Origin: an uncultured Verrucomicrobiales bacterium
Lineage (GTDB): Bacteria > Verrucomicrobiota > Verrucomicrobiia > JADLBR01 > JAIBCM01
NCBI GenBank assembly: GCA_964435495.1
Contig: CAYSZK010000001.1
Span: forward strand, 699 to 64,698
DNA: 64,000 nucleotides
Direction: 5' to 3'
Notes under the pieces: generated by a model
Database searches by the model: none
Told to the model about the DNA's origin: nothing
Seen by the model: the letters and a program-made list of their open reading frames with translations, nothing else
Part shown: positions 6,331 through 51,404 of the stretch, one piece after another
Layout: each line of letters begins with the position of its first letter
Position numbering within the stretch: the first letter of the stretch is position 1
Program-made: the position numbers and the translations under genes

Positions 6331-6342
6331 GAGGGCCGCGAT

Positions 6343-25783: not shown

Positions 25784-25870
25784 CCATCGGTCCAGACCGT
25801 CGTAGCTGATCTGGGTCGTGTTGGTGCCTCGGGTGATCTGGGTAAGCCGGTTCTTCGCGTCCCACTCATC

Positions 25871-26155: not shown

Positions 26156-26260
26156 GCCATTATTTCAAAAAGCCTTATTGCTCCTCAAGATTCATCAAAT
26201 CCCCTAGCGCACTTGACCGCGGGTCATCGCCCGAGCCTTCGATGTAGCCCCCGTTCCCAA

Positions 26261-29075: not shown

Positions 29076-29113
29076 CGCCCTCTGGTAAGCTCATATGAAT
29101 GTCATGACCGGCT

Positions 29114-29467
29114 CTAAGCCACATAAATGCGCCCGTCCAAGTGAACTTGAAACGATTCAAAGTCCCTCGAACTATTGAAAACATCTAGTGAGTAACTATT
29201 CTCAAACATCAATATCATTCCACCTTCCTCGGTGCGCGTCGCGTGCTCACACGAAAGCCCAACTAGCTGACAAATCGCCGACGCATGTATTGTGTAGTCG
29301 CTGAATTCCGATCGGAGTGTGATGCCATGCTTAAGCAGGCATGCCCCCTCAATGGACACCCTGCTGTCTTCAAAATTCAAAATGCATTGGTGTTCACTAA
29401 TGCAGACTTGAAGCACCTTCTTGCCAATAAGGGGACTTAGATCGATCTCAACAGGCAATCCATTCAT
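29114..29467 (-). CDS. putative cognate immunity protein of the full-length Rhs
   Basis: A ~117-aa ORF lies in an AT-rich island 4 nt downstream of the rhs stop. Confidence 0.5.
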   Translation of the reverse strand: MNGLPVEIDLSPLIGKKVLQVCISEHQCILNFEDSRVSIEGACLLKHGITLRSEFSDYTIHASAICQLVGLSCEHATRTEEGGMILMFENSYSLDVFNSSRDFESFQVHLDGRIYVA

Positions 29468-29471
29468 AAGG

Positions 29472-32400
29472 CTACCTAGGGGGAAGGGGAACATGCGTCT
29501 GGGCCTGAAACTCAGGCCTGCTCACGTTGGAAGGAGGCTTTCCAGTAGCGGGATTTACTGGCTGGCCATTCTGATTGTATTGCCTCCAATATCCGTTTGG
29601 ATACTGCTCAGTTGGCGACATTTCTCGAATGGTATGTCCAGGTGGAAGCTCGTCTGGCGTGGGAGGTTCTTGTGGAGAATTAGTCGGCTCCTTGAAATAT
29701 GGACTAGGCTTTGGAGATGCGGGGTTTACGGGACACGGCTCCCCGTCTCCAAAAGACTCATGAAACAATGGTCCAAGAAAACCAAGCACAGCCGCCGCGG
29801 CCGCCAGTTTTGTCCGCAAGTCCGGCGGCCTTGGCGTCGGACTGTCCGGGGTCGGAGCATCCGCGTTGTCGGGTTCAACAAGGAGCAGCGTCGCCACAAC
29901 CGCGGCAACAACCAGCGGGTTGTCCCCTTTCGGGTCAATGTAGTTCACCGGGTTGTCGGCAAGGGCTCCGTAGAGGTTGATGCCGCCCCGCTCGCCAATG
30001 GCGTCCCGCCGCAGCCACCTGCCGAGCAAGGGGCTGTAGGGCCTGCCGAGCTTCGGAAGTTGCAGCTCTGACGAGCCATGCTGATACATGCCCTGAAACA
30101 GGAAATCCGAATCCCGATCCCCTGCCGTCTTCGTAACACGCCCCCAGGGATCGTAGCTGTAGCTCGCACGAACTGCCCCATTCGTGTCCACGAGTTCCCG
30201 CACTGAGCCAAGATGATCTCGCGTGTAAAACAGCTTCTCGCCGCCGACGCCCTCGGCCCCCTGCGGAAAGAACCGTTTCACGACCGCGCCATTTCCATCC
30301 CGCTCCTCGCACAGTTCCAGCCCGCACCAGACAAACCGCTTCACCGCGTTGGTCACGGTCCCGGCCTTCTCCACAATCTGGACCCAGCGGTCCAGGCCGT
30401 CGTAGCTAATCTGGGTTGTGTTCGTGCCTCGCGTGATCTGCGTGAGCCGGTTCTTGGCGTCCCAGGAGAGGATGCGGTCATAGACCGCATCTACAGTCAT
30501 GTTCCCATCGGCGTCATAGGTGAAGGTTTGCGAAGCGCTGTTAGTGCCGATCACGATCGTGTAGCGGTTTGTTGCCGTGTTGGTATTTCCATCCTTGGCT
30601 GTGATCGTCAACGTGTTGCTGCCCACGACCAAATTGGTCAGCAACGCCGAAAAACTGGTTCCTTCCGTCTGTTGCGCTTGATTGGTCACCGCTCCTGTAC
30701 CGAGCCGGTATCGCACCGTCGCCGGTTCGTTCACCGTGCCGGACATCCATGTGGCCGTGCCCGCGGCCACGTTGGTCACCTGGTTGAGGCCGTTGTGCTT
30801 CGCAGCGCGCAGCGTTGTGCCCGCTTTTTCCCAGAGCCGGTTGTCCGCCTTGTCGTAGCCATAGCCGTAATCGGTCTCCGGCGCCCAGTTCCCCCCGCCG
30901 CTGTCCCGCCACACGGGCGCGGCGACGAGACGGTTCACCTCGTCAAAGACCGCCCGCATTTCCCGCGCCGGGTTCACCCCACGAATCTGCCCCCATTGCG
31001 TGATTTGGTCCAGCGCATCGTACTCGTAGGTGAAGGTGCTCAGGTGCGTGGTGCCCACGCTGTTGGTGATGCCCCGCAGCCGCCGATCCCCCATGACATC
31101 CCAGTAACCGAAGGCCGTGGTCTGGCCGTTGGGATAGGCGACGCCCGCCAGCAGCGGCGACACCGGGTTTTCGTAGGTGTAGGCGAAGTCGCCAAGGGCA
31201 TTGGCCGCGTTTGTGGCGCGCCCTTGGCTGTCAAACGCCCAAGCGGCCACCACGCCGTTGATGGCGCGGTTGGTCATGCGCCCCAGTCCGTCATAGCCGT
31301 AGGAGACAAGATCATTGGCCCATGGCCCGTCTTCGGCCACAAGCTGGCCGGCGTTATCGAAAGTGTAGGCGGTGGCGCCGATGCCGTCGGCCATGTTAGT
31401 GCGCCAGTTGCGCCGGTCATAGCCGAAACTCACCGGGGCCAGGCCTGTGCCGGTGATGTTGGTGAGGTTCCGAGCGGCGTCGTAACGGAATTCGTTGGTC
31501 TGGCCCCGGCTGTTGACCGCCGCCGCCAGCAACCCGCGCGGGTCATAGGCGTAGGCGATCCGGTTGCCGTCGCTCCACTCCCGGTTGGTGACGCGGTTGA
31601 GTGCGTCGTAGGCAAAGCGCGTGGCGTTGCCGTTGCCATCGCGCAGAACGGTGAGATTGTCGGCGGCGTCATACTGCATCTGAATCCAGCTTCCGTCGGG
31701 GCGGCCCTCGGCCACCATCCGTTTGTTGCCGTCGTAGGCGAACACCGTCTTGCGCCCAAGCCGGTCGGTCACCGAGGCCGGCACGCAGCATTCCCACTCG
31801 TACTCGTCGAAGGTCCCGTCAGGGCGGGTGGCGCGAATGAGCCGGTTGAGATTGTCGTAATCAAAAGACCGCGTTCTTCCCGCGGCGTCGGTGGAAGCCT
31901 GGACCCGTCCCACTGCGTCATAGGCCGCCGTGGCGACGGCCAGGCCCTGGTGGGTGACATTGGTTACGCGGAAGAGGTGGTCGCGTTGGAGGGCGGTGAC
32001 TTCGCCCAGCGCGTTGGTGACCGCCGCAGGCAGGCCGTTGGGCGCGTAGGCAACGCGGGTGGCGCGGTTGAGCGCGTCGGTGATCAAGACGGGCTGGCGC
32101 GCAGCGTTGTACTCGATCCGGGCGGCGCTGTTGCCCGCGCCGTCGATGATGTTGGTCACGTCCAGGCCGTTGGCGGCGTAGAACCAGCGGTTGGTGTTGT
32201 TGCGGGCATCGACGCGTTCGATGGGCATACCCTGGTCGTTGTAGGCCATCCGGACCATTACGTTGGCGGGGTCAATGATGCGGCGGGGATGGCCGTCGAG
32301 GTCGAAGTCCATGAACTGCCAGCGGGTGCCGTCGGCGCGCTTGATTTCCGACAAGAGCGCTTTGCCTTCGACGACCGAGTAGCGCAGTTCGGTCTTGGGC

Positions 32401-34721
32401 GCCTGTTTGGCAGGCAGCGGGGATTCCATCTGCCGGCCATCGCGAATCCAACTGAACCGGCTGTACCCATTGTAATAATACTCCATCCGGTTGTTCTCCG
32501 GGGTTGTCACGGTGATGCGGTAGTTCTCCCACATGGCGGCGCCGGTGGCGGGGTAGTAGTTGGCGGCGCGCACGCCGTCGGTGGGTTCGGTGAGAAAACC
32601 GGTGGCGCCCATCGGGGTGGTGACGCGGTCGAGGAAAAGATTCCCGTTATTGGTGGTGTAGCCATAGGAGTAGGCGACGCCGCCCATGTCGGTTTGGTTG
32701 GTGAGGTTGCCGGAGGCGCTGTAAAGGAACGTGGCCTGGCGTCCAAAGGGATCGGCAATCGCCTGGATTTTTCCCTGGGCGTTATACGACACCGTGAAAT
32801 CGCGGTTGAGGGCGTCGGTGACTTTGAGAATCTGGCCCGCGGCGTCGTGGGTGACGCGCACGGTGTTGGTGTGGGGGTCGCGGATTTCCAGCAGCAGCGG
32901 CGTGGCGCCGCCGCCGCCCATGGCCGCCGGGATGCCGTAGGCGTAGATCATGCCCTCGGGAGTCTGGACTTGATAGGCGCTGGCGGCGGTCTTGCGCAGC
33001 GTCCACGCCCCGTGTTCGATGGGCGGGAGATAGCCGCCGACGCCGTCGGGGGTGTAAACGTCGCGGCGCCCGTCGGGCATGATGACGGTGACCTTGCCGT
33101 CCGGCCCAACCAGGGCGTAGGACGCGTAGTTCAGCGTCCATTTGTTGCCGACGGGCCGGGCTTGGTTGAGGGCGTCCTGGCTGTTGTAGGTGAGGTCGAA
33201 GGAAACCGCGGGGCCGAGCCCGGAGTTGTGCCACAGAGGCGTGTCCAACACGCAAAGGTTGAGATTCGCCGGATTGATGTCCCAAACGGGGAGGCCGGAA
33301 CCGGCGGGCAACCCGCCGCCGCCAGACTCGTCACGTTCGCCCTGGCATCGGCGTTTGTCGGAGCCCAGATCGTCCTCAGGGCGGGGAATGCCACAGCAGC
33401 CGCCGAGGACCTCGGTTTCGGAAGGTGTCGCGGCGGGAAACGCCCGCGCGGCGCCGGGATCGAAGACCACTGCCAAGCCGCTCCATTGGGAATCAAACTG
33501 CTCGAGCGTGAGGGTGACGGTTTGCTTGAGGCGGGGGTCGTAGATCGTGAGGAGAGCCGGGGCGGCGCCCGATTTTTCCAGACCGCTGACGACGACGAAG
33601 TGGAGGTCGCGGTAGTGGGCGATGAAAGGGCGGGGGAGACTGGCGATGCCGCCGGCGTCGGCCTGGACGGCGGCGGTCTCAAGGCCGTGACTTTCGGCAA
33701 ACCGCTGGAGTTGGCCGATGGTAAAACCCTCGTCGCCGGGGGCAGGGAGGCGGCGGACCTCGCGCGCCTCGCGGATGCGCCCGCGCAATTCAAGCACACG
33801 GGCGACGGCTTCGGCGCCGCAATCGCGCAGCTCGGCGAGGTGGCCTTGGAAATGGTTCAACTGGCGAATCCAGTTCTGGGCGTAGGTGCGGCGTTCCCAC
33901 TCCGTCTCCACGGCCAGCATATCGGCAAAAGCGGCGCGTGAATTGGCTATTTCGCCCCGTTCCATCAGGAGGACCGCGCGGCGGAGCCTGGCTTTCTGGC
34001 GCATGGCAAAAGCCGAGTCCTGGGCCGTCTCCGGAATGGCGGAAAGGATGGCGTTGAAGTGGCCCTCGGCTTCGTCCCAGCGCCCCGTGAATTGCGCCTC
34101 GCAACCCAGGTGCAGCCGCGCCTCACCGGCCCACGGACTGTCCGGGAACTCGCGCAAGTGCGCATGGAAGACCGGAACGGCCTCCGCATACCGGTGCGCA
34201 TTCCACAGATTCATCGCGCGGGCGAAGTGAAGATTCACCCGCTCCATCCGCGCGCGCTGTCCGGCATCCTTCAGCCGTAGCGGCTCGGCGGGCGCGGTGG
34301 GCGTCAACGGGCTGCCCAATTGTCCGGCCATTCGGAGTTCGCGTTCGGTGGGCACGCGGTCGAGGCGCAAATCGAGCAGGCTGATTGCGCCTTCCACGCC
34401 GCCATAGAGGCTGGCGCGCTGGCCGCGGCGTTCAGGCGGGTCGCGGCGTTCGAGGTCGCGGATGCGTTCTAGGGTGAGAGGCGGCTCGATCCTGGCGGTT
34501 GGCGCCTGCGGGGCGGGCTTCGAGCAAGCGGCCAGGAGCACGAACGCCATCCAGTGGAGATGCGGTCTGTGACAGCGTCGGACGCATTCCCGGTTCTGGG
34601 ATGCGTGGCTGGCATGGTTCGGGCGGTTTGTGGCGGATCGTCGGACGGCATGGCACACTTCCATGGAGAACGACCGGATGCGGTCACAAGCCGAATCGAC
34701 AGAATAGGGAGTCGGGATCAT
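29472..34721 (-). CDS. rhs: Rhs-family polymorphic toxin (TPR region, C39-peptidase-like domain, YD/RHS repeats, RHS core, variable C-terminal tip)
   Basis: It has many YD repeats and an Rhs core end (YTRDHLGSV…YSYDPWGRV…[34 protein letters not shown]). A papain-like Cys…His region ([12 protein letters not shown]…[13 protein letters not shown]) lies in the N-terminus. The ATG at 34721 overlaps the upstream gene's stop (ATGA). Confidence 0.9.
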
Positions 34722-40756: not shown

Positions 40757-41758
40757 TCACGCGGTTCCCGTTAGGAACCAGGTTGCCATGGGGCCTTTGC
40801 CCTTGATCTCGATTTCGCCCCGGGGCTCGAACGTGAAGGCGCCGCCCAAGCGTTCCTTGACGGCGGCGCTCACATGGATTTTGCCGGGTTCGCCGTGGGA
40901 TTCCAAGCGGCTGGCGGTGTTTACGGTGTCACCCCAGATGTCGTAGATGAATTTGCGCTTGCCGATGACGCCGGCGACGACGGCGCCGGCGTGAAGGCCG
41001 ATGCGCAACTGGAGCGCTTGGCGCCCGCTGTCGGCGACCGCGGCCCGCATCTCCAGGGCGAGCCGGGCCATGGCGGCAAGGTTGTCCGGACGCGGATCGG
41101 GCAGGCCCCCGGCCACCATGTAGGCGTCGCCGATCGTCTTGATTTTCTCCAGGCCGTGTTTTTCGACGAGGTTGTCGAAGGCGGAGAACACGCGGTTGAG
41201 CATTTCGACGAGGCTGATGGCGTCGAGCTTCGCGGAGAGCGGCGTGAAATTGACGATGTCGGCGAACAGCACGGAGGCGTCTTCGAAACGTTCCGCGATG
41301 ATTCCGCCGCCGCGCTTGAGGCGGTCGGCGATGGGGGCGGGGAGGACGTTGAGGAGGAGGCGGGTGTTTTCCCGGTTGAGGCGGTCGAGGGCGAGATGGG
41401 TGTTGACGCGGGCTAGCAGCTCGTGGGCGTTGAACGGCTTGGCGACGTAATCCACGGCGCCCAGTTCGAAGCCTTTGACGATGTCGGCGGTCTCGGTCCT
41501 GGCGGTGAGGAAGATGACGGGGATGTCCCGCCAGCCGGGATGTTCCTTGAGGCGGCGGCAGGTTTCGAAGCCGTCCATTTCCGGCATCATCACGTCGAGA
41601 AGGATCAGGTCGGGGACCTGCCGGGCGAGGGCGTCGAGGGCGATCCTGCCGTTGGTGGCCACGCTGATCTGGTAGCCTTGCTCCTTGAGAATGGCGGTGA
41701 CCGCCTGGATGTTGGCCGGGGTGTCCTCGACCAGCAGGATGCGTCCTTCTTTGTTCAT
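40757..41758 (-). CDS. response regulator receiver fused to class III adenylate/guanylate cyclase domain
   Basis: ILLVEDT…DLILLDVMMPEMDG is a REC domain. FADIVNFT…GDAYMVAGG…YDIWGDTVNTASR is a CYC domain. The start overlaps the HK stop (ATGA). Confidence 0.85.
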   Translation of the reverse strand: MNKEGRILLVEDTPANIQAVTAILKEQGYQISVATNGRIALDALARQVPDLILLDVMMPEMDGFETCRRLKEHPGWRDIPVIFLTARTETADIVKGFELGAVDYVAKPFNAHELLARVNTHLALDRLNRENTRLLLNVLPAPIADRLKRGGGIIAERFEDASVLFADIVNFTPLSAKLDAISLVEMLNRVFSAFDNLVEKHGLEKIKTIGDAYMVAGGLPDPRPDNLAAMARLALEMRAAVADSGRQALQLRIGLHAGAVVAGVIGKRKFIYDIWGDTVNTASRLESHGEPGKIHVSAAVKERLGGAFTFEPRGEIEIKGKGPMATWFLTGTA

Positions 41759-44700
41759 GAAATTCCGTCCGTGGCGGAGGGGCATGCCTCGTCGAGCCGG
41801 CCCAGGGCGCCGTGGAAGTCGTAACCGCGCACGGCGGCGGCAACGGCATCGAACGCCGGGGCGGGCATGGCGGCGCGCAGGAGCGCCTCCGATTCGTCGA
41901 GCCAGTCCACCGAGGCCGCGTCGAAATCGGCGAGGCGGCGGCGAAGCTCGATGGCCGCGGCGCGGGCCTGGGCGGGGTCCACGGTGGCGGTTTCGGCGGG
42001 CGCGGGCATGGCGGGCGCGGCGGGCGCCGGTTCTTCGGGGAGACGCAAGAAAGCGCGCACTGCGGGGAGCAGGGCGTCGAGCGCGGCGGCGGTGGCGGCG
42101 TGAAGGCTCTGGATTTCGGCGGCCGGGGCTCGGGAACGGAGGGCGGCTTCGAGTTGGGCGGCGGCGGCATGCAAGGCTTTTGCGCCGAGATTGCCGGCGA
42201 CTCCCTTGAGGGCGTGCGTGGCGGCCTCGGCGGCGGGGAGGTCGCCGGAGGCGATGCTGGTCCCGATGCGGGCGGCGGTCCCGGCATTGTTCTCCGCGAA
42301 CTGGCGGAGCAACTTGTCGTAGAGCCTGGCGTTGCCGGCGACGCGCATGAGGCCGTCGGCGGTATCGAGGGTGGGGAGGGCTGGGGGCGGCGCGGGTTCA
42401 ACGGGGGAGGCCGGGGGGGCCGGAGGGGCGGGGAGTGGGGCGGTGTGGGTTGGGCGGAAATGCTTGGTGATGGTGGCGAACATCTGGACGGGGTCGATCG
42501 GCTTGGCGATGTGGTCGTTCATGCCGGCATCAATGCAGCGTTGCCGTTCCTCGTGCGTGGCGTGGGCGGTCATGGCGAGGATCGGCAGAGCCGCGAACTG
42601 GGGATCGGAGCGGATGAGCATGGTGGCCTGGTATCCGTCCATTTCGGGCATTTGCAGGTCCATGAGAACCAGATCGAACGCCGCGGGCGCGGCGGCGAGT
42701 TTTTCGACGGCATCGCGCCCGTTGTGGGCGAGGGAGACGGTGGCGCCGGCGCTTTCGAGGAGTTCCGTGGCGACCTGCTGGTTGATTTCGTTGTCTTCGG
42801 TGAGGAGGACGCGGGCGCCATCGATCCGGGCGGTGGCGTCGCGGGGCGCGGCCTGCGCGGCGGCGCCGGAGTCGGGTGCGAAGACGTTGACGAGCGTATC
42901 GACGAGCATGGACTTGGTGACGGGCTTGACGAGGAATCCGTCCACGCTCTCGGCCTCAGCCTCCTCGCGGACTTCCTCCCGGCCGAAGGCGGTGACGATG
43001 ACGAAGGCGGGCGGGTTGGGGATGGCGGGATCGTTCTTGATTTGGCGGATGGCCTGGATGCCGTCCATGCCGGGCATGCGCCAGTCCATGAAGACGATGT
43101 CGTAGGGGCTGGCGGCGGCGTGCTGGCGGACGGCGGCGATGGCTTCGAGGCCGGAGGCGACGGCATCGACGGCGGCGGCCATGGGGGCGAGGGCGTCGGC
43201 GAGGATTTCCCTGGCGGCGGCGTTGTCATCGACGACGAGGGCGCGGAAGGCGCGGAGGCCATCGGGGACGAGGCGCTGGGAGGAGCGTCCGGCGCCGATG
43301 CCGAGCCAGACGGTGAAATGGAACTGGCTGCCTTTGCCGGGCTGGCTTTCGAGCCAGATTTGGCCGCCCATGAGTTCGACGAGCCTGCGGCAGATGGTGA
43401 GGCCGAGGCCGGTGCCTCCGTGCTTGCGGGTGGTGGACATGTCGGCCTGGCTGAAAGGCTGGAACAGGCGGGCGGCTTGTTCCGGGGTCATGCCGATGCC
43501 CGTGTCGCGGACGGTGAACTGGAGTTTGGCCTTGTCGCCGGTGCGCTCGGCGACTTGGGCGGTGACCCGGACTTCGCCGGTTTCGGTGAACTTGACGGCA
43601 TTGGTGATGAGATTGGTGAGGATTTGGCCGAGGCGCAGGGGATCGCCGACCAGGTCCTGGGGGACATCGGCGGGGATATCGACTAGGAATTCGAGGCCTT
43701 TGTCGTGGGCCTTGCCGCCGGTGATGTTGACGGTGGAGGTGATGACATCGTCGAGGCGGAAGGTAGTGGATTCGATTTCGAGGCGGCCGGCCTCGACCTT
43801 GGAGAAATCGAGGATGTCGTTGATGATGGAAAGCAGGGAGGTGCCGGCGTTGTGGATTTTGGCGAGGTAATCGCGTTGTTTGGGTGTGAGGGCGGTTTTG
43901 AGGGCGAGGTGGGCGAGGCCGATGATGGCGTTCATCGGGGTGCGTATCTCGTGGCTCATGTTGGCGAGGAACATGGACTTCATCTGGGTGGCTTCCTCGG
44001 CCCTGGCCTTGGCCTCGATCATGGCCTCCTCCTGCCGGCGGCGCAGGGTGATGTCGGTGAAGCTGACGACCGCCCCCACGACGGCGCCGTCCTTGCGGAT
44101 CGGTGTGGCGCCGTATTCGACGGGAAGGGGCGAGCCGTCCTTGCGCCAGAGGCATTCGTCGTCCACAACGCGGGCCTCGCCGCGGGTGTAGGCGGCGTGC
44201 ATCGGGCATTCCTCGACCGGGTAGTCCGAGCCGTCGGGCCGGTGGTGGTGGATGAGGGCGTGGGACGGCTGGCCGATGAGATCGGCGGTGTCGAAGCCGA
44301 GCATTTTGCAGGCGGCCGGGTTGACGAAGGTGACGCAGCCTTTGACATCAACGCCGAAAATGCCCTCCGACGCCGACTGGAGGATCAGGCGGTTGCTTTC
44401 CTCGGCGGCGCGCAGCTCGGCGTTGCGGGCGGCGAACCGGAGGGCGTTGGCGACGGCCTCGGCGGCCTTGTCCAACCATTTGGATTGGATTTCCGAGAGC
44501 GGCTTGAAGAGGGCGAATTCGGCGGCGCCGACGAGATCGTCATCGGCGAGGAGGGGTTGGGCGACGATCTCGGCGGGGGCGACTTCGCCAAACCCGAAAT
44601 GGACGCGCAACGAGGAGGCGTCGGGGCCATGGACCAGGCGCTGGCGGGAGCGGGCGGCCTCGCCCACGGTGCCGACTCCGGGGGGATAGGCATGGCCCGC

Positions 44701-46278
44701 CGCGGCGTCCGGGTAGGCGTGGGCGGCGAGGCGGTGGAGGTTGCCGTCATCGGCGAGGGTGAAGATGGCGCCGGCCGGGGCTTCGAGGAACCGGATCATG
44801 ACGCCGAGGGCGCGCTGGGCGAGATCGGCGGTGGACAGGCAGCCGCGGAGGCTGGAGTTGAGCTCGGAGAGGCTGGATTCAAGGGCGGCCTGCTGGCGGG
44901 CTTGGCAGGCCTGGGTTTCCAGGGCGTCCTCGGCGGCCTGGCGGCGTTCGGCCATGAGATTGATGGCGTCGGAGAGGGAATCCTCGCTGCCGCGGCGGGG
45001 CACGCGGCGGCTGAAATCGCCTCCGGCGATGGAGGCGCAGACCGAGGCAACGTGGCGGTAGGAATCGACGACGCGGTTGAAGCTGCGGAACATCGCGCCG
45101 ATCTCGTCTTTCATTCGTCCGGGATCGGGGAGGTCCTGGCCGAGATTGCCGGAGGCGACGCGATCGGCGGCGTGCAGGGCGAGGCCGATGCGGCGGGAGG
45201 CGGAGGAGGAGAAGGCCCATGCGAGCGCGAGCGCGAGGCCGAGGGCGGAAAAGGCGATGGTCGAGGCCAGGAAGCCATGGCGCTTGATGGGGCCGAGGAC
45301 GGCGGCCTCCGGGAACTTGACGAGGACCATCCATTCCCCCGTGGGAACGGGGGCGGAGGCGAAGTAGCAGGGTTGTCCATCCACGGGATCAACGGCGGCG
45401 GTAAACCGCGCTTCCTGGCGGTTGGCGTGGAAGGCGGAGGCGATCTCCTTGTAAGGGGTGTCCTTGATCTCCTTGGTCCGGTAATGCACGGCAAGCGTGG
45501 AGGCGATGAACCGTCCCCGGCTGCTGATGAGGATGACGCCGACGCCGGTGTCTTTCTGGATGGACAGGAGGGATTCGGCGATGTCTTCGAGGGCGCGGTC
45601 CACTCCGGCGACGCCCGCGAAACGCCCGTCGCGGACGATGGGAAAGGTTTGTTCGACAATCATTTTGCCCTCGTACACGTAGGGCTCCGTCACCATGGGA
45701 ACGGGTTTGCCCTCGGCCAGGAAGCGGTCTTTGCAGCCCTGATAGTACAGGCTTTTTTCCATGTCGATCAGGGGGGTGAGCGAGATGGCGCCCGCCGCCT
45801 TGTTGTCGCGGAACCAGTAGGGGATGAACCGGCCTTCGGGACCAAAGGCGTTGCCGAGGGCGGCGGCATCGGGCGTGCCGGCGTAGGCGGCGTCCTGGCC
45901 GTCGGCGCCGGGTTCGTAGCCGAAATAGGCGCCTGTGAATTCGGGCGATTCTTCGAGAATCCGGCGGGCGTAGCGGAGGGAGGCGCCGCGGTTGCCGAAA
46001 AGGCCCTCCTCCTGAGCGAGGGCCATGATGCGGGCGGTTTGGACGGCCCGCTGGTTGCTTTCATCGATTTGGACGGCGATGGTTCGGGCGCGGGCGCGGA
46101 GGAGGTCCTCGGCCTGGGCGCGCATGGCTTTCTGGGTGCGCGAGGAAAGGAAGAGCAGGACGGCGGTGAGGACGGCCATGGCGGGGAGCATGACCCAGAG
46201 CATGAGGCGCCCACGCAGGCTGTGGCGGAAGGCGACGCGGGTGGGCGCGGTTGCGGGGGTTGGAGTTTGATCCGCCAT
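41755..46278 (-). CDS. hybrid sensor histidine kinase (periplasmic sensor, HAMP, GAF/PAS, HisKA-HATPase, two REC, HPt)
   Basis: An N-terminal TM helix and a Cache-like region are followed by HEIRTPMN (H-box), N/G boxes, two DxxxD…D…K receiver blocks and a C-terminal HPt (HALKG). Confidence 0.9.
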   Translation of the reverse strand: MADQTPTPATAPTRVAFRHSLRGRLMLWVMLPAMAVLTAVLLFLSSRTQKAMRAQAEDLLRARARTIAVQIDESNQRAVQTARIMALAQEEGLFGNRGASLRYARRILEESPEFTGAYFGYEPGADGQDAAYAGTPDAAALGNAFGPEGRFIPYWFRDNKAAGAISLTPLIDMEKSLYYQGCKDRFLAEGKPVPMVTEPYVYEGKMIVEQTFPIVRDGRFAGVAGVDRALEDIAESLLSIQKDTGVGVILISSRGRFIASTLAVHYRTKEIKDTPYKEIASAFHANRQEARFTAAVDPVDGQPCYFASAPVPTGEWMVLVKFPEAAVLGPIKRHGFLASTIAFSALGLALALAWAFSSSASRRIGLALHAADRVASGNLGQDLPDPGRMKDEIGAMFRSFNRVVDSYRHVASVCASIAGGDFSRRVPRRGSEDSLSDAINLMAERRQAAEDALETQACQARQQAALESSLSELNSSLRGCLSTADLAQRALGVMIRFLEAPAGAIFTLADDGNLHRLAAHAYPDAAAGHAYPPGVGTVGEAARSRQRLVHGPDASSLRVHFGFGEVAPAEIVAQPLLADDDLVGAAEFALFKPLSEIQSKWLDKAAEAVANALRFAARNAELRAAEESNRLILQSASEGIFGVDVKGCVTFVNPAACKMLGFDTADLIGQPSHALIHHHRPDGSDYPVEECPMHAAYTRGEARVVDDECLWRKDGSPLPVEYGATPIRKDGAVVGAVVSFTDITLRRRQEEAMIEAKARAEEATQMKSMFLANMSHEIRTPMNAIIGLAHLALKTALTPKQRDYLAKIHNAGTSLLSIINDILDFSKVEAGRLEIESTTFRLDDVITSTVNITGGKAHDKGLEFLVDIPADVPQDLVGDPLRLGQILTNLITNAVKFTETGEVRVTAQVAERTGDKAKLQFTVRDTGIGMTPEQAARLFQPFSQADMSTTRKHGGTGLGLTICRRLVELMGGQIWLESQPGKGSQFHFTVWLGIGAGRSSQRLVPDGLRAFRALVVDDNAAAREILADALAPMAAAVDAVASGLEAIAAVRQHAAASPYDIVFMDWRMPGMDGIQAIRQIKNDPAIPNPPAFVIVTAFGREEVREEAEAESVDGFLVKPVTKSMLVDTLVNVFAPDSGAAAQAAPRDATARIDGARVLLTEDNEINQQVATELLESAGATVSLAHNGRDAVEKLAAAPAAFDLVLMDLQMPEMDGYQATMLIRSDPQFAALPILAMTAHATHEERQRCIDAGMNDHIAKPIDPVQMFATITKHFRPTHTAPLPAPPAPPASPVEPAPPPALPTLDTADGLMRVAGNARLYDKLLRQFAENNAGTAARIGTSIASGDLPAAEAATHALKGVAGNLGAKALHAAAAQLEAALRSRAPAAEIQSLHAATAAALDALLPAVRAFLRLPEEPAPAAPAMPAPAETATVDPAQARAAAIELRRRLADFDAASVDWLDESEALLRAAMPAPAFDAVAAAVRGYDFHGALGRLDEACPSATDGIS

Positions 46279-46427
46279 GGGAGATATTTTGGCCGGGGCT
46301 TTGGAGAGGGGAGCGTAGGGGATGGAGCGGGGGATTGTCGATGGCGAACCGCTCGCACGCGGGGTTCAGCGCGTGAGAAGGGGTCTGAAGAGGGTTCGGG
46401 AAAAGGCGAAAAGGGGTCAGGGCGCAC

Positions 46428-46491
46428 AAATCAAGGGCCTTGCGCGAGCGCGGAGCGCTTCTTGCCAATCCAGCGGCTCAACCCGGGGGGC
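46428..46491. repeat. ~64-bp imperfect direct repeat, copy A (upstream of vapB-2)
   Basis: aatcaagggccttgcgcgagcgcggagcgcttcttgccaatccagcggctcaacccggggggcag differs by ~5 mismatches/1 indel from the copy at 47351..47414. Confidence 0.7.
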
Positions 46492-46581
46492 AGCAGTGAC
46501 GAGGGCCAATCCCCCAATCGACATGATCCGGGCGGTCCGACTGCGGGGGGGAACGGATTGACGGAAAGCCGTAAAGCCGGT

Positions 46582-46824
46582 ATGGATTTCCATATGAAGG
46601 TGAAAACGACACTCAACATTAGCGGCGCGACGATGCGGGAAGTCAAGCGTGAGGCCGCGCGGCGCCGGCAGACCATGTCCGAACTGGTCGAGGCCGCGCT
46701 GCGGATCGTTGTGGAACCGCAACAGCACGGCACGGTGCTGCCGCCCCTGCCGGAGTTCCGCGGCGGCGGGCTGCGCGTCGATGTGGCCAACCGCGACGCG
46801 CTATACAATGTAATGGAGCGGTAG
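46582..46824 (+). CDS. vapB: VapB-family antitoxin (Rv0623/PSK-like)
   Basis: MKVKTTLNISGATMREVKREAARRRQTMSELVEAALR is a classic VapB N-terminus. Its stop is 2 nt before the PIN gene start. Confidence 0.65.
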   Translation: MDFHMKVKTTLNISGATMREVKREAARRRQTMSELVEAALRIVVEPQQHGTVLPPLPEFRGGGLRVDVANRDALYNVMER

Positions 46825-46826
46825 CC

Positions 46827-47309
46827 GTGTTCGTTGTGGACACCAACATCCTGATCTACGGGTCTGACAAGGACTCGCCCGATCACAAGCGATGCCGGGG
46901 ATTGTTGGAATCGTGGAGGACGCAGCCGACGCCATGGTATGTGACATGGGGCATTGTCTATGAATTCCTCCGGGTGGTTACCCATCCCCGTGTTCTTACC
47001 CGCCCTTTTACGCCGGAGGAGGCATGGATGTTTTTAAACGCCCTGTTTGCCTCCCCGCGTCTTGGCGTGCTCGCCGAGACGGACCGGCACCGGCATGTCG
47101 CCGCGGAAGTGTTTTCCGAAGTGCCCGGCATTTCAGGCAATCTGGTGTTTGACGCGCATACCGCAATCCTGATGAGAGAAAACGGCATCCGGACGATTTA
47201 CACACGGGATTCAGATTTCAATCGGTTTCCGTTCCTGGATACGATCGATCCGATTACGGACAACCGACGAACCGGCAAATCCCGCGTACGCGGCAAACCG
47301 CGCCGCTGA
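46827..47309 (+). CDS. vapC: PIN-domain toxin VapC
   Basis: VFVVDTNILIY…LVFDAHTAILMRENGIRTIYTRDSDFNRF shows the PIN D…E…D…D pattern. It has a GTG start. Confidence 0.8.
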   Translation: MFVVDTNILIYGSDKDSPDHKRCRGLLESWRTQPTPWYVTWGIVYEFLRVVTHPRVLTRPFTPEEAWMFLNALFASPRLGVLAETDRHRHVAAEVFSEVPGISGNLVFDAHTAILMRENGIRTIYTRDSDFNRFPFLDTIDPITDNRRTGKSRVRGKPRR

Positions 47310-47350
47310 TTAGCGGCCCGCCGCGCAGCATGAAGGGGCCGGGGAGCATC

Positions 47351-47414
47351 AATCAAGGGCCTCGCGCGAGCGCGGAGCGTTTTTGCCAATCCAGCGGCTC
47401 AATCCGGGGGGCAG
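47351..47414. repeat. ~64-bp imperfect direct repeat, copy B (downstream of vapC-2)
   Basis: See copy A. Together the two copies bracket the ~860-bp vapBC module. Confidence 0.7.
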
Positions 47415-47437
47415 GTCTCCTTTCCCAAAGGGACGCT

Positions 47438-48136
47438 TCAAGGCAGAAGCAGGAGATAGCTTTGGGCGGCGAGGAGGGTGGTCAGGTGGAAGAACAGGGC
47501 TTCTTCCAGGGGGAGAATGCCGAAGAGACGGATGCCGAGAGTTTGGGAATCGTCGAAGAACCAGACGCCCGCGGCGATGGCGGCGGTGTCGAAGGCGCAG
47601 AGGATGAAACCCAGACCGAAGGTAACGGCAAGGACAGGGACGGGCATGCCGATCCAGACGCCACCGGCGCACCACTGGAGCGCGATGACGGGGAGCATCC
47701 AGACCAGAAGATGGCGAAGGTAGGCCAGGCGCGGCGGAAGGGGCAGGCGGAGGATAACCCACCCTGCGGGGATTGAAGCGGCGAGGGTCCAGGCGGCGGC
47801 AGTCCAGTCGGGCGGAAGTTTCATGGGGATGGGATGGCCGTGGAGCTTCCAAATGGTGACGTGCATGAGGAGGCAGGCCTGGACGGTCTGGATGACGAAA
47901 AAGGCGTATTCTTCCACGGGGCATTTGCCGATGCGGAAGCGGATGCGGTTGTCGGGGAAATCCCAGATGCCGCGGGCAACGGCCCAGTTATCCCAAGGGG
48001 TGGTGAAGGCGACGGCGAGGAGAACGACGCCGGCGGTGACGGCGGTGTCGGTCCAGGTCCAGGTGAAGGAGGCGGCGCCGGCGAGGAGGAGCAGCAGGGG
48101 CGCGTTGAATCGCCAATGGAAGGATTCGTAGGTCAT
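47438..48136 (-). CDS. lycopene cyclase domain-containing membrane protein (CrtYcd-type)
   Basis: It is polytopic, with lycopene-cyclase-domain motifs (…PVEEYAFFVIQT…, repeated half-domains). Confidence 0.65.
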   Translation of the reverse strand: MTYESFHWRFNAPLLLLLAGAASFTWTWTDTAVTAGVVLLAVAFTTPWDNWAVARGIWDFPDNRIRFRIGKCPVEEYAFFVIQTVQACLLMHVTIWKLHGHPIPMKLPPDWTAAAWTLAASIPAGWVILRLPLPPRLAYLRHLLVWMLPVIALQWCAGGVWIGMPVPVLAVTFGLGFILCAFDTAAIAAGVWFFDDSQTLGIRLFGILPLEEALFFHLTTLLAAQSYLLLLP

Positions 48137-48159
48137 GATGCCGGGGCGCCGCGCGGGGG

Positions 48160-48633
48160 TCAGCGCGAGATGTCGTGTTGGGTGAGGATTTCATAACCCG
48201 CGGCGCGGAGGACGGTGCGCGCGCAGTCGCGGTCTTCGACATGAAGGACGAGGCAGGGGCGTCCGCGCGGGCGGGTGAGGAGCGGGTACATGAAAAGGAT
48301 GTTGCACTCGCCCTGGAAGAGGGCGGCGAGGAGGCCGCGGAGTTCGGCGGCCTCGGCCATTTCGGCGACGAGGACGTGGGTTTCGGTGAAGGCATGGGCG
48401 TGTTCGTGGAGGATGTGGCGGGTGCGGTCCGGGTCGCTGACGAGGATGCGTTCGATGCCGCAATCGGAAGTGTCGAGGACGGAGACGGCGACGATCTGGA
48501 TGCCGGCGGTTTCCAGCATGCGGGTGAGGTCAAGGAGGCGTCCGACCTTGTTTTCGAGGAAGACGGAGAATTGGATGGTGCGTTCGGGTTCGCGCGCGCG
48601 TTGCGTTTCGGCCTGCACGCCCCCAGCTTGCAT
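48160..48633 (-). CDS. ACT domain-containing protein
   Basis: Two beta-alpha-beta-beta-alpha-beta ACT-like halves are present (FSVFLENKVGRLLDLTRMLETAGIQIV…). Confidence 0.55.
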   Translation of the reverse strand: MQAGGVQAETQRAREPERTIQFSVFLENKVGRLLDLTRMLETAGIQIVAVSVLDTSDCGIERILVSDPDRTRHILHEHAHAFTETHVLVAEMAEAAELRGLLAALFQGECNILFMYPLLTRPRGRPCLVLHVEDRDCARTVLRAAGYEILTQHDISR

Positions 48634-48683
48634 GAAGGCGCGGAAAAATCGAGCCTTTCAAGAAACTCGCATGGGCGCCGGGA

Positions 48684-48986
48684 TCAGGCGGGTTTTGGGG
48701 CGACGGACTCGAGGGTGGAAGCGAGGCGCGCGGAGATGATGCGGGAGATATTGAGCAGGACCTGGGAGACAAGGTAGGGGGAGAAGCGGCGGAGGGAAAG
48801 GAGGGAATCGTAGTCGAGGCTGAGGAGGCGGGCCTGGGTGCGCGCGACGACGTCGGCGGTGCGGGGGCGTTGGGAGACGAACGCCATTTCGCCGAAGATG
48901 TCGCCCAAGCCCAGGGTGGCGACGGTCTTGCGCGCATCGCCGGCGCCGACGGCGACTTCGAGGCCGCCGGAAAGGACGACGTACAT
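48684..48986 (-). CDS. cyclic-nucleotide-binding domain, C-terminal half (continuation of the upstream MMPL ORF across an in-frame TAA)
   Basis: YVVLSGGLEV…GDIFGEMAF…RTADVVA are the cNMP phosphate-binding-cassette motifs. It is in the same frame as 48999..51404. Confidence 0.6.
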   Translation of the reverse strand: MYVVLSGGLEVAVGAGDARKTVATLGLGDIFGEMAFVSQRPRTADVVARTQARLLSLDYDSLLSLRRFSPYLVSQVLLNISRIISARLASTLESVAPKPA

Positions 48987-48998
48987 GCGCGCGCCGGG

Positions 48999-51404
48999 TT
49001 ACCCGGGGGGGACGACGAGGGAGCCCGGGGGATGCTCTTCGATGTCGGAGGCGAGGATGATTTTGCGTGCCTGCCATGGGGTCAGCCCCTCGAAGAACGG
49101 GGATTTGGCGAGCAGGGCGGTGCGGAGGTGGAGGCCGACGATGTCCCAGAGCGTGACGACGCGGGTGTGGCCGAAGAAGAGGGGGGTGACAAGCATTTCG
49201 GTGGCGAGCGCGACGAGCATGACGCCGGCGCTGAGGAGGCCGAATTCGCGGACGGGCTGGAAACTGGAGAGGCCGAGGACGGCGAAACCGGCGCCGAGGG
49301 CGAGGGATGTGGCGGTGATGGGGACCAGCTCGTCGCGGATGGCGGTGCGCATCCCGGCGCGTTCGTCCTTGAGGCGGCGGGCCTCGCGGTTGAAATGGAC
49401 GAGCAGGTGCATCGTGTCGTCCACGGCGATGCCCAGCGTGATGGCGGCGACCATGCAGGTGCCGACGTTGAGGGTGATGCCGGCGGCGCCCATGGCGCCG
49501 AAGATGGCGAGGACGGGGAGCATGTTTGCGACGACCGTGAGCGCTCCGCAACGCCAGGAAAGGAAAAGGACCCCGACGATGAGAAAAAGCGAGAGCATCA
49601 TGCCGCCGAGGGAAAGGGTCTGCGCCCAGGTGATCGAGTCGGCGCCGCCGGCGAACAGGAGGGCGCGCCCGCCAAGGCTGTACACTACCGGGCCGAATAG
49701 TTGGGCGTCGAGGGCGGCGCGGATGCGGGCGGCGAGGGCGCTGATTTCGCGGCTTTGGTCGAGGTGGCAACGGATCACGAGATTGGCGCGGGCGAGGTCC
49801 GGGGTGAGCAGGCTCTTGTATTCGGCGGGGTGGGCGAAGAGGAGAAGCTGGCGGACGGCGGCGGCGGTGGCGGGGACGGTCTGGTGGACGGGATCGCCGT
49901 CGTGGATCTGGCCGTTGATGCGGGCGAGGAGCCCGGCGGCGGACATGACGCTGTCCACGCCTTCCTGTTTGCGGAGGAAATCGGCGATGGCGGCCACCTG
50001 GCGGAGGGCTTGGGGATCGGCGAAGGCGCCTGGGGCGGCGTGGAGGGTGAGGTTGAGGACTTGGAGGCCTGGGAGGCGGGCGGTGAGGCGGTTGTTGTTG
50101 AGGATGACGGGGGAGTCCGTGCGGAAGAAGGCGCGGAAGTTGTTGCTGACCTCGATGCGGACGGCGAGGAAAATGGATGCGGCGGCGAGGAGGGCGAGCC
50201 CGGCGAGGACGGCGCGAGTGTGGCGGAACAGGAGCCGGTCCAGCCAGGCGACGATCCGGTCGGGCCAGGTGCGGCGGGAGGGGGCGCGGTTGCCGTGGAG
50301 GAGCGGGGCGGCGAAGCGGAAGCAGGCGGGGAGGAAGAGGATGGAGACCAGGAACCGGGCGGTCATGGCGAGCGCGGCGGCGATGCCAAACTCGCGGAGG
50401 ATGGGGACATTGCTGGTGGCGGTGGAGGCGAACCCGAGGATGGTGGTGCCGGAGGTGAGGGCGAGGGCGAGGCTGATGCGGCGGGCGGCGTGTTCGACGG
50501 CCTGGCGCGGGGACGCGCCCGTTTGGAGGTGTTCCCGGAACTCGTGGATGATGTGGATGTCGCTGGTGGCGCCGATGACGAGGACGAGGGCGGGCAGGAT
50601 GTAGTTGAGGGGGTTGACAGGCAGGCCGATGGCCGCCATGGCTGCGCCGGTCCAGAGGACGGCGATGGCGGCGTTGAGGATCGGGAAAACCGCGGCGGGC
50701 AGGCTGCGCAGAGTAAAGATCAGGAGGGCGAAAAGGACACCGAGAGACAGGGGGAGCAGCACGGCCTGGTCGCGGACCAACTGGCGGCGCAGCCAAGTCT
50801 CGGACGCCGGCGCGCCCGCGTAGAAAAGCGCGGCGAAATCGCCGGTGAACTCCGCAAGGACATGCTCGACCGCGGCCGTGACCCGTTCGGCGGGAGGCGC
50901 ATCCGGGCCGTCGGGGAGGTGAAGGAGGAAGAGCGTGGCTTCGCCGTCCTGGGAGACCACCTGGCCGGTGAGGAGCGGGTTGGCGATGACGCGGGCGCGG
51001 AGGGCGGCGGCGGCTTCGGGGGTGGCGGGTGGGGAGGCGATGGCGGGGCCGGTTTCCAGGATGCCGTTTTCGTTGCGGATATCGGAGAGGTTGAAGAGGC
51101 TTTCGACGCGGGAGAAGACGGGAAGGGCGGCGAGGCGGTCGTGAAGGGCGCGCAGGCGCGCGAGGCGTGCGGGGGAGAAGAGAGCGGCATCTTCCGCATA
51201 GACGGCGGAGGGTTCGCCGCCGCCGAAGTGGCTGCGCAGCGTGTTCCATTCGTCGCGTTCGCGGCTGGCGGCGGGGATGAGCGCATCGCCGGAGACTTCG
51301 ACGCGGACCTGGCGGGCGACGGGAAGGGCGAGGACCGTGGCGAGGATTACGGCCAGGGCGATCCAGCGGGCCTGGTCAAACGCGAAAAGGGGAATCCGCC
51401 ACAC
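48999..51404 (-). CDS. MMPL/RND-superfamily transporter with the start of a C-terminal cNMP-binding domain
   Basis: It has 12 predicted TM helices in two 6-TM bundles with periplasmic loops. The C-terminal …FFEGLTPWQARKIILASDIEEHPPGSLVV is the N-terminal half of a cNMP-binding domain. Confidence 0.75.
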   Translation of the reverse strand: MWRIPLFAFDQARWIALAVILATVLALPVARQVRVEVSGDALIPAASRERDEWNTLRSHFGGGEPSAVYAEDAALFSPARLARLRALHDRLAALPVFSRVESLFNLSDIRNENGILETGPAIASPPATPEAAAALRARVIANPLLTGQVVSQDGEATLFLLHLPDGPDAPPAERVTAAVEHVLAEFTGDFAALFYAGAPASETWLRRQLVRDQAVLLPLSLGVLFALLIFTLRSLPAAVFPILNAAIAVLWTGAAMAAIGLPVNPLNYILPALVLVIGATSDIHIIHEFREHLQTGASPRQAVEHAARRISLALALTSGTTILGFASTATSNVPILREFGIAAALAMTARFLVSILFLPACFRFAAPLLHGNRAPSRRTWPDRIVAWLDRLLFRHTRAVLAGLALLAAASIFLAVRIEVSNNFRAFFRTDSPVILNNNRLTARLPGLQVLNLTLHAAPGAFADPQALRQVAAIADFLRKQEGVDSVMSAAGLLARINGQIHDGDPVHQTVPATAAAVRQLLLFAHPAEYKSLLTPDLARANLVIRCHLDQSREISALAARIRAALDAQLFGPVVYSLGGRALLFAGGADSITWAQTLSLGGMMLSLFLIVGVLFLSWRCGALTVVANMLPVLAIFGAMGAAGITLNVGTCMVAAITLGIAVDDTMHLLVHFNREARRLKDERAGMRTAIRDELVPITATSLALGAGFAVLGLSSFQPVREFGLLSAGVMLVALATEMLVTPLFFGHTRVVTLWDIVGLHLRTALLAKSPFFEGLTPWQARKIILASDIEEHPPGSLVVPPG

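Follow-up and report, generated by a model that had tools for sequence, protein, structure and literature searches.

We found that the vapBC toxin–antitoxin operon in the 64-kb window (i.e., the whole stretch of DNA analyzed here, 64,000 nt) lies between two copies of a long direct repeat. This arrangement is probably the scar of an insertion accompanied by long target duplication, a process described for restriction-modification (R-M) systems (Nobusato et al., 2000, Gene 259:99; Furuta, Abe, Kobayashi, 2010, PMC2853133). The insert between the repeat copies (46494-47332, 839 bp) holds only a predicted promoter, vapB, and vapC. The repeat (hereafter R) is local, non-coding spacer DNA, and it is best read as duplicated local sequence rather than as a dedicated recombination site.

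The repeat pair and its host neighborhood

The left copy, R1 (46411-46493, 83 nt; core 46429-46493), and the right copy, R2 (47333-47414, 82 nt; core 47351-47414), were delimited by alignment to each other, and no strand is assigned to either. They have the same orientation, are 922 bp apart, and are identical at 74 of 83 positions (89%; eight mismatches and one single-base indel). The 64/65-nt core is 94% identical, with three mismatches and one indel, while the left 18 nt are more diverged (5/18 vs. 4/65 in the core; Fisher p = 0.02); in the R1/R2 alignment, the left edge is fuzzy and the right edge sharp. With copies that differ by ~6-11%, the event must be old, or the copies were never identical. 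Direct repeats of ~64 bp around vapBC had been proposed by a sequence-only reading of this DNA; they are real and lie where it placed them, but extend further than it had stated. Its distances of ~90 bp upstream and ~40 bp downstream were also roughly right: the end of R1 is 100 nt from the vapB ATG, and the vapC stop is 41 nt from the 64-mer in R2 (23 nt from the extended R2).

The copies flank a site between two host genes. A hybrid sensor histidine kinase gene (41755-46278, minus strand) starts at 46278, with R1 132 nt upstream of this start; Pfam gives its domain order as dCache-HAMP-GAF-PAS-HisKA-HATPase-2xREC-Hpt. R2 lies 23 nt past the stop (47438) of a gene for a membrane protein with a lycopene-cyclase domain (47438-48136, minus strand), which converges on vapC and has its 3' flank kept by R2. 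The upstream region of the kinase gene is likewise intact (132 nt plus R1). In distant relatives (54-57% identity in the lycopene-cyclase gene), the ACT_8/lycopene-cyclase synteny is kept, the downstream genes differ, and R is not present. Other Pfam assignments in the 34.7-53.6 kb region, besides the kinase, are a response-regulator adenylate cyclase, a cNMP-binding protein, an MMPL transporter, a LolA-like protein, a TPR protein, and an RCC1-repeat protein. The other PIN/RHH pair of the window was examined as well and has no similar repeat scar.

Over the repeat region, the window matches each of two independent Logan assemblies (SRR10095373 and SRR10095374) at 100% identity, which indicates that R1 and R2 are not an assembly artifact. 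Within the window, 20-mer and 29-mer cores occur exactly twice each (0.01 and 0.00 expected from shuffles), and the blastn match of R1 to R2 has E = 7e-26, with the next best matches at 16-19 nt. The 64-mer is thus confined to two positions of the 64-kb window, which the sequence-only reading had itself named as the first half of what would count against it. No third copy of R, even a degenerate one, was found in the window when up to three mismatches were allowed or when blastn (word size 7) and nhmmer were used.

This copy number bears on the reading of R as a low-copy dispersed host repeat, either REP/MITE-like or regulatory, with vapBC having landed or been retained between pre-existing copies. 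Such an origin would fit the 6-11% divergence, as expected for old independent copies, and "chance insertion between repeated sequences" is a recognized class in Furuta et al. (PMC2853133); moreover, the host sequence examined spans 64 kb only. However, beyond the missing third copy, R has no palindrome, hairpin, or terminal inverted repeats (blastn-short), unlike REPs and MITEs, and no Rfam match was obtained at gathering thresholds or even at E<=1. The two copies also sit in the same orientation exactly around the only foreign DNA of the spacer. We consider a dispersed host repeat unlikely.

The secondary structure of R was assessed by folding both strands of both copies. The z-scores range from +0.8 to +2.3, i.e., less structure than in shuffled sequences, in agreement with the earlier remark that the repeat has no hairpin symmetry. 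A promoter/terminator scan gave no promoter-like or significant terminator-like signal in R; the one terminator-like match, a 5-bp stem in R2, is within the number expected by chance. Together with the Rfam result, these findings led us to reject a structured RNA or terminator. R as coding sequence was also rejected: the plus-strand ORFs over R1 and R2 are spurious, their frames differ around the indel, and they have no Pfam match. A sigma-54-like GG-N10-GC motif noticed by eye in R1 was discarded as a chance occurrence because its spacing is broken in R2. As a side observation, R2 has gained a short GC stem followed by a T-run.

An integron-type gene cassette, with the R copies as attC sites of a CALIN-like remnant, was also considered. 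Sedentary chromosomal integrons are well known to contain toxin–antitoxin cassettes between repeated sites, and R1 contains one RYYYAAC heptamer (GCTCAAC). Nevertheless, this heptamer is mutated in R2, and a regex search on either strand found no pair of R'' (RYYYAAC) and R' (GTTRRRY) motifs. The hairpin expected of attC is missing on both strands, the two copies in 64 kb form no array, the putative cassette has its own promoter, and the ORFs scanned (34.7-53.6 kb in full and a few elsewhere) contain no integron-integrase domain. The missing attC architecture, hairpin, and array effectively refute an integron cassette.

Alignment and blastn detected no similarity beyond the limits of R on either side, and there is therefore no trace of a larger duplicated unit. 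This result speaks against a local rearrangement unrelated to acquisition, in which an R-vapBC tandem duplication was followed by deletion of the second vapBC; that history would also take two precise events where one suffices. A variant holds that R is a cis-regulatory element maintained in two copies, with each neighboring gene needing its own. The better conservation of the core than of the left edge could reflect function, and the GC stem and T-run of R2 could weakly terminate vapC transcription. These hints are set against the lack of promoter-like or significant terminator-like signals in R and against its absence downstream of the lycopene-cyclase orthologues in the nearest relatives. 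Even taken jointly, a local rearrangement and two maintained regulatory copies seem very improbable to us.

The vapBC operon and its foreign origin

The insert begins with a left spacer (46494-46551, 58 nt, no strand assigned) that matches neither the host repeat nor other vapBC loci and is presumably flanking donor DNA that came along with the operon. It is followed by a predicted promoter/operator (46558-46596, plus strand), for which conservation in 16 aligned loci suggests the function. By sequence reading, this region has a -35 box, TTGACG (46558-46563, plus strand), and a -10-like TATGGA (46581-46586, plus strand) separated by a 17-nt spacer. The palindrome TATGGA-TT-TCCATA (46581-46594) contains the -10 element and runs into the vapB ATG (46594-46596). 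Conservation across the 16 loci starts exactly at TTGACR and takes in the palindrome and the ATG; a generic promoter scan did not call a promoter at 46558-46596. Judging from this layout, the vapB transcript is likely leaderless or near-leaderless. The apparently leaderless start is conserved across the vapBC family.

The gene content is as the sequence-only reading had given it. vapB (46594-46824, plus strand) encodes a putative 76-aa RHH-like antitoxin with matches to RHH_1 (E = 0.002) and DUF6364 (E = 5e-4) that are both below gathering scores; in related loci, it is kept together with vapC at the nucleotide level. Compared with its homologues, it has a 6-nt (two-codon) insertion after the start codon (MKVKTT vs. 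MKTT). Its ORF ends 2 nt before vapC (46827-47309, plus strand), which encodes a predicted toxin of 160 aa, a PIN-domain RNase of the Mtu_PIN family (PF01850, E = 3e-12; TIGR00028, 99.7 bits, with the cut-off at 73.6). Its translation contains the conserved acidic residues D5, E46, D109, and D128/D130. A right spacer (47310-47332, 23 nt, no strand assigned), defined by sequence reading and locus comparison, completes the insert; a GC-rich hairpin (GCCGCT-GATT-AGCGGC) around the vapC stop codon involves this spacer and the end of vapC. Apart from the apparently leaderless start and the two-codon insertion at the vapB N terminus, there is nothing unusual about the module itself.

Sequence comparisons clearly point to a foreign, horizontally acquired unit. 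Homologues of VapC with 80-89% amino acid identity occur in several phyla; sources identified by name include Planctomycetota (80%), a cyanobacterium (78%), Pontiellaceae (78%), and Brocadiia (68%). By comparison, the best non-self homologue of the neighboring lycopene-cyclase-domain gene is 57% identical. This discrepancy, together with the low GC3 of vapC (67% vs. 80-90% in host genes), is the basis for considering the unit foreign. The GC content is 60.4% for the insert and 57.1% for vapC, compared with 66.3% for the whole window. The claim that the DNA between the repeats is AT-richer than its surroundings thus applies mainly to vapC, whereas vapB is host-like (GC3 83%). Carriage of this VapC by a plasmid or phage was rejected after a tblastn search of PLSDB gave at most 34% identity.

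To delimit the conserved unit, we compared 80 vapBC loci from JGI and 12 from Logan, NCBI, JGI, and ENA, all with VapC homologues. Nucleotide homology to more than 60 related loci spans only ~46550-47320, and R1 and R2 were never matched. The left limit coincides with the operon's own -35 box (46558), and the right limit is ~10 nt past the vapC stop (~47317-47320). Because the homology is confined to this interval, R is not carried along with the module, and R as a part of a mobile vapBC unit was rejected. R was also absent beside homologous vapBC at ~90 loci with VapC homologues 56-89% identical and, with two core queries, from the IMG/VR viral contigs. A 20-mer query of GTDB contigs (one genome per species) gave only four chance matches of 20-21 nt, none of which extended. 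The proposal that the repeats belong to a family of recombination sites that moves toxin–antitoxin cassettes is not supported by these results: R occurs twice in 64 kb, has no copies in GTDB, IMG/VR, or the vapBC loci, and lacks attC features, hairpins, and terminal inverted repeats.

Four of ~62 vapBC loci have flanking direct repeats; among 197 pseudo-insert controls, 1-2 do (Fisher p = 0.012-0.03), and there were no inverted matches of equal score. In locus L044, the duplicated segment (86 nt, 89.5% identity) comprises the final 28 codons and the stop of a convergent host gene. In L043, a 52-nt repeat duplicates a promoter and RBS, with one copy before vapB and the other before the next gene. 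L047 and L019 provide weaker examples. The repeats of L043 and L044 are host-derived and unrelated in sequence to R. Nine of the 11 differences between the L044 copies are at silent third positions, which points to recombination with a donor-derived copy rather than to de novo duplication. With ~94% of the related loci having no flanking repeat, such repeats are not a usual signature of the vapBC family.

These loci also bear on the possibility that R1 and R2 are junctions of the attL/attR type that bound a site-specific integrative element, with R as a true attachment site; the element could be a larger island that decayed to vapBC or a tiny cassette mobilized in trans by a recombinase encoded elsewhere. 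Direct repeats around foreign DNA are the classic signature of att sites, and the fuzzy left and sharp right edges of R recall an att core whose arms are imperfect. The L044 repeat, a gene 3' end duplicated with divergence at silent sites, is what elements carrying a replacement gene end would produce. Against this possibility, Pfam found no recombinase, transposase, or integrase domain in the insert or in the 34.7-53.6 kb region (few ORFs were scanned elsewhere). No tRNA or tmRNA gene occupies the site: R is non-coding and lies 23 nt past a stop codon, and the only tRNA of the window is at 6.7 kb. The absence of R from the viral contigs, the GTDB representatives, and the ~90 vapBC loci is not expected of an attachment site either, and an 839-bp insert with margins of 58 and 23 nt around a complete operon contains no remnant of island genes. 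An att-type origin therefore seems improbable.

A probable insertion with duplication of a long target

The preferred explanation remains an insertion accompanied by long target duplication. A self-contained vapBC operon, with its own promoter/operator, RHH-like antitoxin, and PIN RNase toxin, would have been gained horizontally. The target would have been a spacer of ~238 bp (23 + 83 + 132 nt) between the stop of the lycopene-cyclase gene and the start of the kinase gene, and the insertion would have left ~65-83 bp of this spacer on both sides of the insert. We infer that the duplication arose together with the insertion. Duplication of the target sequence accounts for the intact flanks of both neighboring genes, namely, the 3' flank of the lycopene-cyclase gene and the 5' flank of the kinase gene. 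A duplicated target site had been suggested by the sequence-only reading as one option, and it gains support from the local spacer origin of the repeat, the foreign cargo, the homology that ends inside the repeats, and the analogous loci, although it is not proven.

Two sub-mechanisms may be considered. The repeats could result from widely staggered breaks that were repaired and filled in around captured DNA. Alternatively, the resident spacer could have undergone a single crossover with a homologous copy on a circularized or looped donor fragment. A clean fill-in duplication does not predict that the left 18 nt are far more diverged than the core. Once in place, R1 and R2 would be substrates for RecA-mediated loop-out or amplification, to which the module would be prone, and its loss would be counter-selected by the toxin.

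A broader proposal is that this widespread vapBC family consists of selfish cassettes without a recombinase, which use the long-target-duplication route shared with R-M systems. Such cassettes would enter a spacer with a target duplication of 50-90 bp, loop out as circles via the repeats, and return to related genomes when a single crossover takes place at the homologous spacer. The divergence of the L044 copies at silent sites hints at this cycle of loop-out and re-entry; still, we regard the proposal as rather doubtful. If it were true, the insertion mode would be independent of DNA cleavage by the cargo, since VapC is an RNase and not a DNase, and a general host-repair route for small addiction modules would be implied.

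The entry of small toxin–antitoxin modules into chromosomes without a mobility gene is poorly documented. A vapBC operon with an RNase toxin, together with two to three analogous loci in unrelated hosts, suggests a cargo-independent insertion route, and this locus offers a compact 0.9-kb test case. The weight of the case is modest because it is a single, old event without an empty-site control.

Comparison with known systems

Our literature search found no direct precedent for toxin–antitoxin modules flanked by long repeats; the precedent found was for R-M systems. Like the toxin–antitoxin cassettes of integrons, which are flanked by attC/VCR sites, the locus has a gene pair with its own promoter between two repeats of ~60-130 bp. 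Unlike them, it lacks attC architecture, a hairpin, and an array, the scanned part contains no IntI, and R is a local spacer sequence rather than a member of a family. The attL/attR sites of islands and prophages are similar in that direct repeats flank acquired DNA, and L044 resembles them in duplicating a gene 3' end. The differences are the lack of an integrase, of a tRNA target, and of an attP counterpart in viral contigs, and the element size of 839 bp. The cargo itself is a typical VapBC of the Mtu_PIN type (TIGR00028), with a PIN toxin above the cut-off, a small putative RHH-like antitoxin located 2 nt upstream, and a predicted palindromic operator overlapping the promoter.

The closest parallels are with R-M systems. 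In the published cases of long target duplication, the repeats exceed 30 bp (46-423 bp reported), the inserts are <20 kb and have no mobility genes, the left and right repeats are ~93-99% identical, and the repeats are genome-unique and often located where the target gene starts or stops, such that the gene stays intact (PMC2853133; PMC3874152). Repeats were counted as non-multicopy by Furuta et al. (2010) when there were fewer than 10 further copies, and 24 of their 122 cases were discarded for high copy number (PMC2853133). No mechanism has been established for the process, which was suggested to require that the R-M enzymes break DNA (PMC2853133). Our locus differs in that the cargo is a type II toxin–antitoxin pair whose toxin is an RNase and does not cleave DNA. 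Furthermore, the R-M cases had an empty site in a sister genome as validation, whereas for the vapBC locus no empty site was found among the available sequences, in which the adjacent host gene has no homologue closer than 57% identity. The repeat identity of 89-94% places its divergence at the high end of that reported for R-M systems. In other respects, the resemblance is close. By the criteria of Furuta et al. (2010), the insert is a complete gene unit of <20 kb with no linked mobility gene and flanking repeats of >30 bp. As in the R-M cases, a small "addiction"-type unit of foreign composition is bracketed by long direct repeats of local target sequence (65-83 bp here), which lie at a gene boundary, leave the neighboring genes intact, and occur nowhere else in the sequence examined here.

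Direct repeats flanking the vapBC operon

The toxin-antitoxin pair lies in an 839-bp insert (46494-47332). The first gene, vapB (46594-46824; 76 aa), resembles RHH and DUF6364 domains only weakly. A gap of 2 nt separates it from vapC (46827-47309; 160 aa), whose product has a PIN domain (PF01850, E=3e-12) and scores 99.7 bits against a cut-off of 73.6 for the NCBIfam Mtu_PIN VapC family. The sequence-only reading had described a cassette-like insertion bracketed by 64-bp direct repeats. Inspection of 46000-47900 together with a repeat finder recovered these repeats (R), which proved longer. Based on the repeat finder and alignment, the left copy R1 (46411-46493; 83 nt) and the right copy R2 (47333-47414; 82 nt) are 89% identical and differ by eight mismatches and a single 1-nt indel. 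The homology ends abruptly on the right, and the core (46429-46493 and 47351-47414) has 94% identity. Divergence is higher over the leftmost 18 nt (5/18 vs. 4/65 in the core; Fisher p = 0.02), where the similarity is still non-random (P = 3e-4). An assembly artefact can be dismissed, since the window sequence at R recurs unchanged in two independent Logan assemblies.

Cores of 20 and 29 nt each occur exactly twice in the window (0.01 and 0.00 expected), and neither blastn (word size 7) nor nhmmer found a third copy in these 64 kb, even a degenerate one. We consider it improbable that R is a low-copy host repeat with vapBC located between two of its members by chance. Among GTDB contigs (one genome per species), the 20-mer core had only four chance matches of 20-21 nt, none extending. 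Searches of IMG/VR with two cores gave no match, nor does R occur close to the lycopene-cyclase orthologues in the nearest relatives. The proposed family of recombination sites is not supported, because R was not found elsewhere in these collections or in the 64 kb of host genome searched.

R is without recognisable function. Both strands of both copies fold no better than shuffled sequences (z = +0.8 to +2.3), in agreement with the lack of hairpin symmetry noted earlier. No Rfam family matched R at gathering scores or at E<=1, and a promoter/terminator scan found no promoter-like site; the sole terminator-like match, a 5-bp stem plus T-run in R2, is within chance expectation. We consider it quite improbable that R was duplicated as a cis-element or by a local event unrelated to the insertion. 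Neither strand of R has an RYYYAAC...GTTRRRY pair, and the two ends of the insert do not form an inverted repeat, which excludes R as attC and a transposon-like origin. An integron-type cassette is hardly credible.

Insertion site and origin of the cargo

The flanking host genes, both on the minus strand, encode a lycopene-cyclase-domain membrane protein (47438-48136; stop 23 nt right of R2) and a hybrid histidine kinase of 1507 aa (41755-46278; start 132 nt left of R1). Subtracting one R copy and the insert leaves a spacer of 238 bp. The surroundings (40757-51404) are a cyclic-nucleotide signalling neighbourhood that includes the kinase, a response-regulator adenylate/guanylate cyclase (40757-41785), an ACT-domain-pair protein (48160-48633), and a cNMP-binding-domain ORF (48684-48986). 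Pfam scans of ORFs within 34.7-53.6 kb identified only signalling, transport, and repeat proteins, with no recombinase or transposase. No tRNA gene is near the insert, the sole one in the window (Gln) being at 6.7 kb, and the VapC family was not found on PLSDB plasmids (best match 34% identity). It is unlikely that R represents the att sites of an integrative element that has decayed or was mobilised in trans.

Two further toxin loci are present in the window, both on the minus strand. A second PIN-domain toxin, unrelated to vapC (5965-6330; PF01850, E=2e-13), and an RHH-like antitoxin ORF (6343-6579) lie about 130 nt from tRNA-Gln (6709-6780); no flanking direct repeat >26 nt was found at this pair (5965-6579). 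In the Rhs locus (24500-34721), an Rhs protein of 1749 aa that includes a C39 peptidase domain (29472-34721) precedes two shorter Rhs-repeat ORFs that we read as orphan C-terminal fragments (27477-29075 and 26261-27289) and, after these, a 285-aa ORF with no Pfam match. Its ORFs share 300-nt blocks in three to four repeats (81-95% identity), and GC3 is down to 0.64-0.75. A main rhs gene with orphan tips is the usual arrangement, which this locus fits.

Sequence comparison shows the vapBC cargo to be foreign and R to be separate from it. Among 5.8 billion proteins, no homologue exceeds 57% identity to the lycopene-cyclase-domain protein, whereas VapC has dozens at 80-89%. Named sources among the VapC matches include Planctomycetota (80%), a cyanobacterium (78%), Pontiellaceae (78%), and Brocadiia (68%). 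The claim that vapBC is AT-richer than its surroundings holds mainly for vapC (57% GC; GC3 67% vs. 80-90% in host genes); vapB is host-like (GC3 83%). We compared the spacer and operon (46279-47437) with 80 JGI loci and 12 further loci carrying VapC homologues of 56-89% identity. Nucleotide homology was always inside 46550-47320 and never reached R1 or R2. In an alignment of 16 upstream regions, conservation starts exactly at a -35 box, TTGACR (46558-46563), followed by a 17-nt spacer and a -10-like TATGGA within the palindrome TATGGA-TT-TCCATA, reaching the vapB ATG. Since conservation begins at the -35 box and spans the palindrome, the module would carry its own promoter and operator, and it is probably leaderless. 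Beside the conserved unit, 58 nt on its left (46494-46551) and ~12-23 nt on its right have no match and are most simply donor flank.

The same block, from TTGACR to the vapB ATG, is conserved across the family (window 46558-46596, L012-L023, and L092-L098). The family palindrome ATATGG-N4-CCATAT covers the -10 box and leaves no space for a leader or Shine-Dalgarno sequence, which suggests that the antitoxin mRNA is leaderless and has its start codon within its own operator. Relative to the family, the window vapB has a 6-nt insertion directly after the ATG.

Flanking repeats at other vapBC loci

For all loci with both flanks available, the 470 nt preceding vapB were compared with the 470 nt following vapC. 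Direct matches of at least 44 bits were found in 4 of ~62 contexts, and inverted matches that strong in none; pseudo-insert controls elsewhere in the same loci gave 1-2 of 197 (Fisher p = 0.012-0.03). Such a repeat is lacking in most loci, among them the seven nearest to the window vapC. Two cases are clear (L044 and L043), with repeats of unrelated, host-derived sequence, and two are weaker (L047, GC-rich; L019, low complexity). The 52-nt repeat of L043 contains TTGACG-17-TAGAAT and a GGAGGA ribosome-binding site; it precedes vapB and, as a second copy, the next gene, where its end is the ATG. In L044, the 86-nt repeat (89.5% identical) duplicates the end of a convergent host gene (last 28 codons, stop, and a few more bases); the vapB-adjoining copy is a truncated fragment. 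Nine of the 11 nucleotide differences are at third codon positions and only one amino acid is changed, so the copies diverged with coding constraint acting on both. This suggests that one copy came with the incoming DNA.

In L044, the vapC stop is separated from the right repeat copy by ~390 nt (1806-2196), which include a ~21-bp inverted repeat (TAGCCCGCGTTATTCATGA / TCATGAATAACGCGGGCTA) as well as an internal direct repeat and may represent a small MITE-like insertion next to the module. L102 (GCA_964411055.1, contig CAYPJN010000072.1) has a 401-bp direct repeat, 95% identical (2873-3273 and 3991-4391), adjoining a vapBC homologue. The repeat is a duplicated part of an IF-2B/MtnA-like gene and flanks a 203-aa ORF without Pfam match; the copy adjoining vapC is a 122-aa fragment. 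This looks like a further long-target-duplication insertion with that ORF as cargo.

For the window locus, the most likely account, and one we think rather probable, is that the spacer separating the lycopene-cyclase-domain and kinase genes captured a self-sufficient vapBC operon, leaving 65-83 bp of spacer on both sides of the insert. This may have occurred through repair of widely staggered breaks or, if a circularised donor fragment carried a homologous copy, through a single crossover with that copy. We lean slightly toward the crossover because of the fuzzy left edge, the 6-11% divergence between copies, and the L044 result.

Comparison with restriction-modification systems

Insertion with long target duplication was reportedly noted for restriction-modification systems by Nobusato et al. 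in 2000. It is described for these systems as direct repeats >30 bp (46-423 bp reported) that are genome-unique and ~93% to 100% identical between left and right, often lie across the start or stop of the target gene and keep it intact, and flank inserts <20 kb without mobility genes (Furuta et al. 2010, PMC2853133; review PMC3874152). The mechanism is unknown; DNA breakage by the enzymes has been suggested, as has a life cycle of insertion, repeat-mediated amplification, and release (PMC2853133, PMC3874152). In the literature searched, whose coverage is partial, we found no description of such a scar for a toxin-antitoxin module; this absence is no proof of novelty. The window locus matches the pattern on the published criteria open to testing here: flanking direct repeats >30 bp, an insert <20 kb that holds the complete gene unit, no mobility gene within 34.7-53.6 kb, and foreign cargo. 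An empty site in a sister genome and genome-wide uniqueness of the repeat are also among the published criteria. The case is a single old event and has no empty-site control. It exemplifies a type of scar already described, with a toxin-antitoxin module as a new type of cargo.
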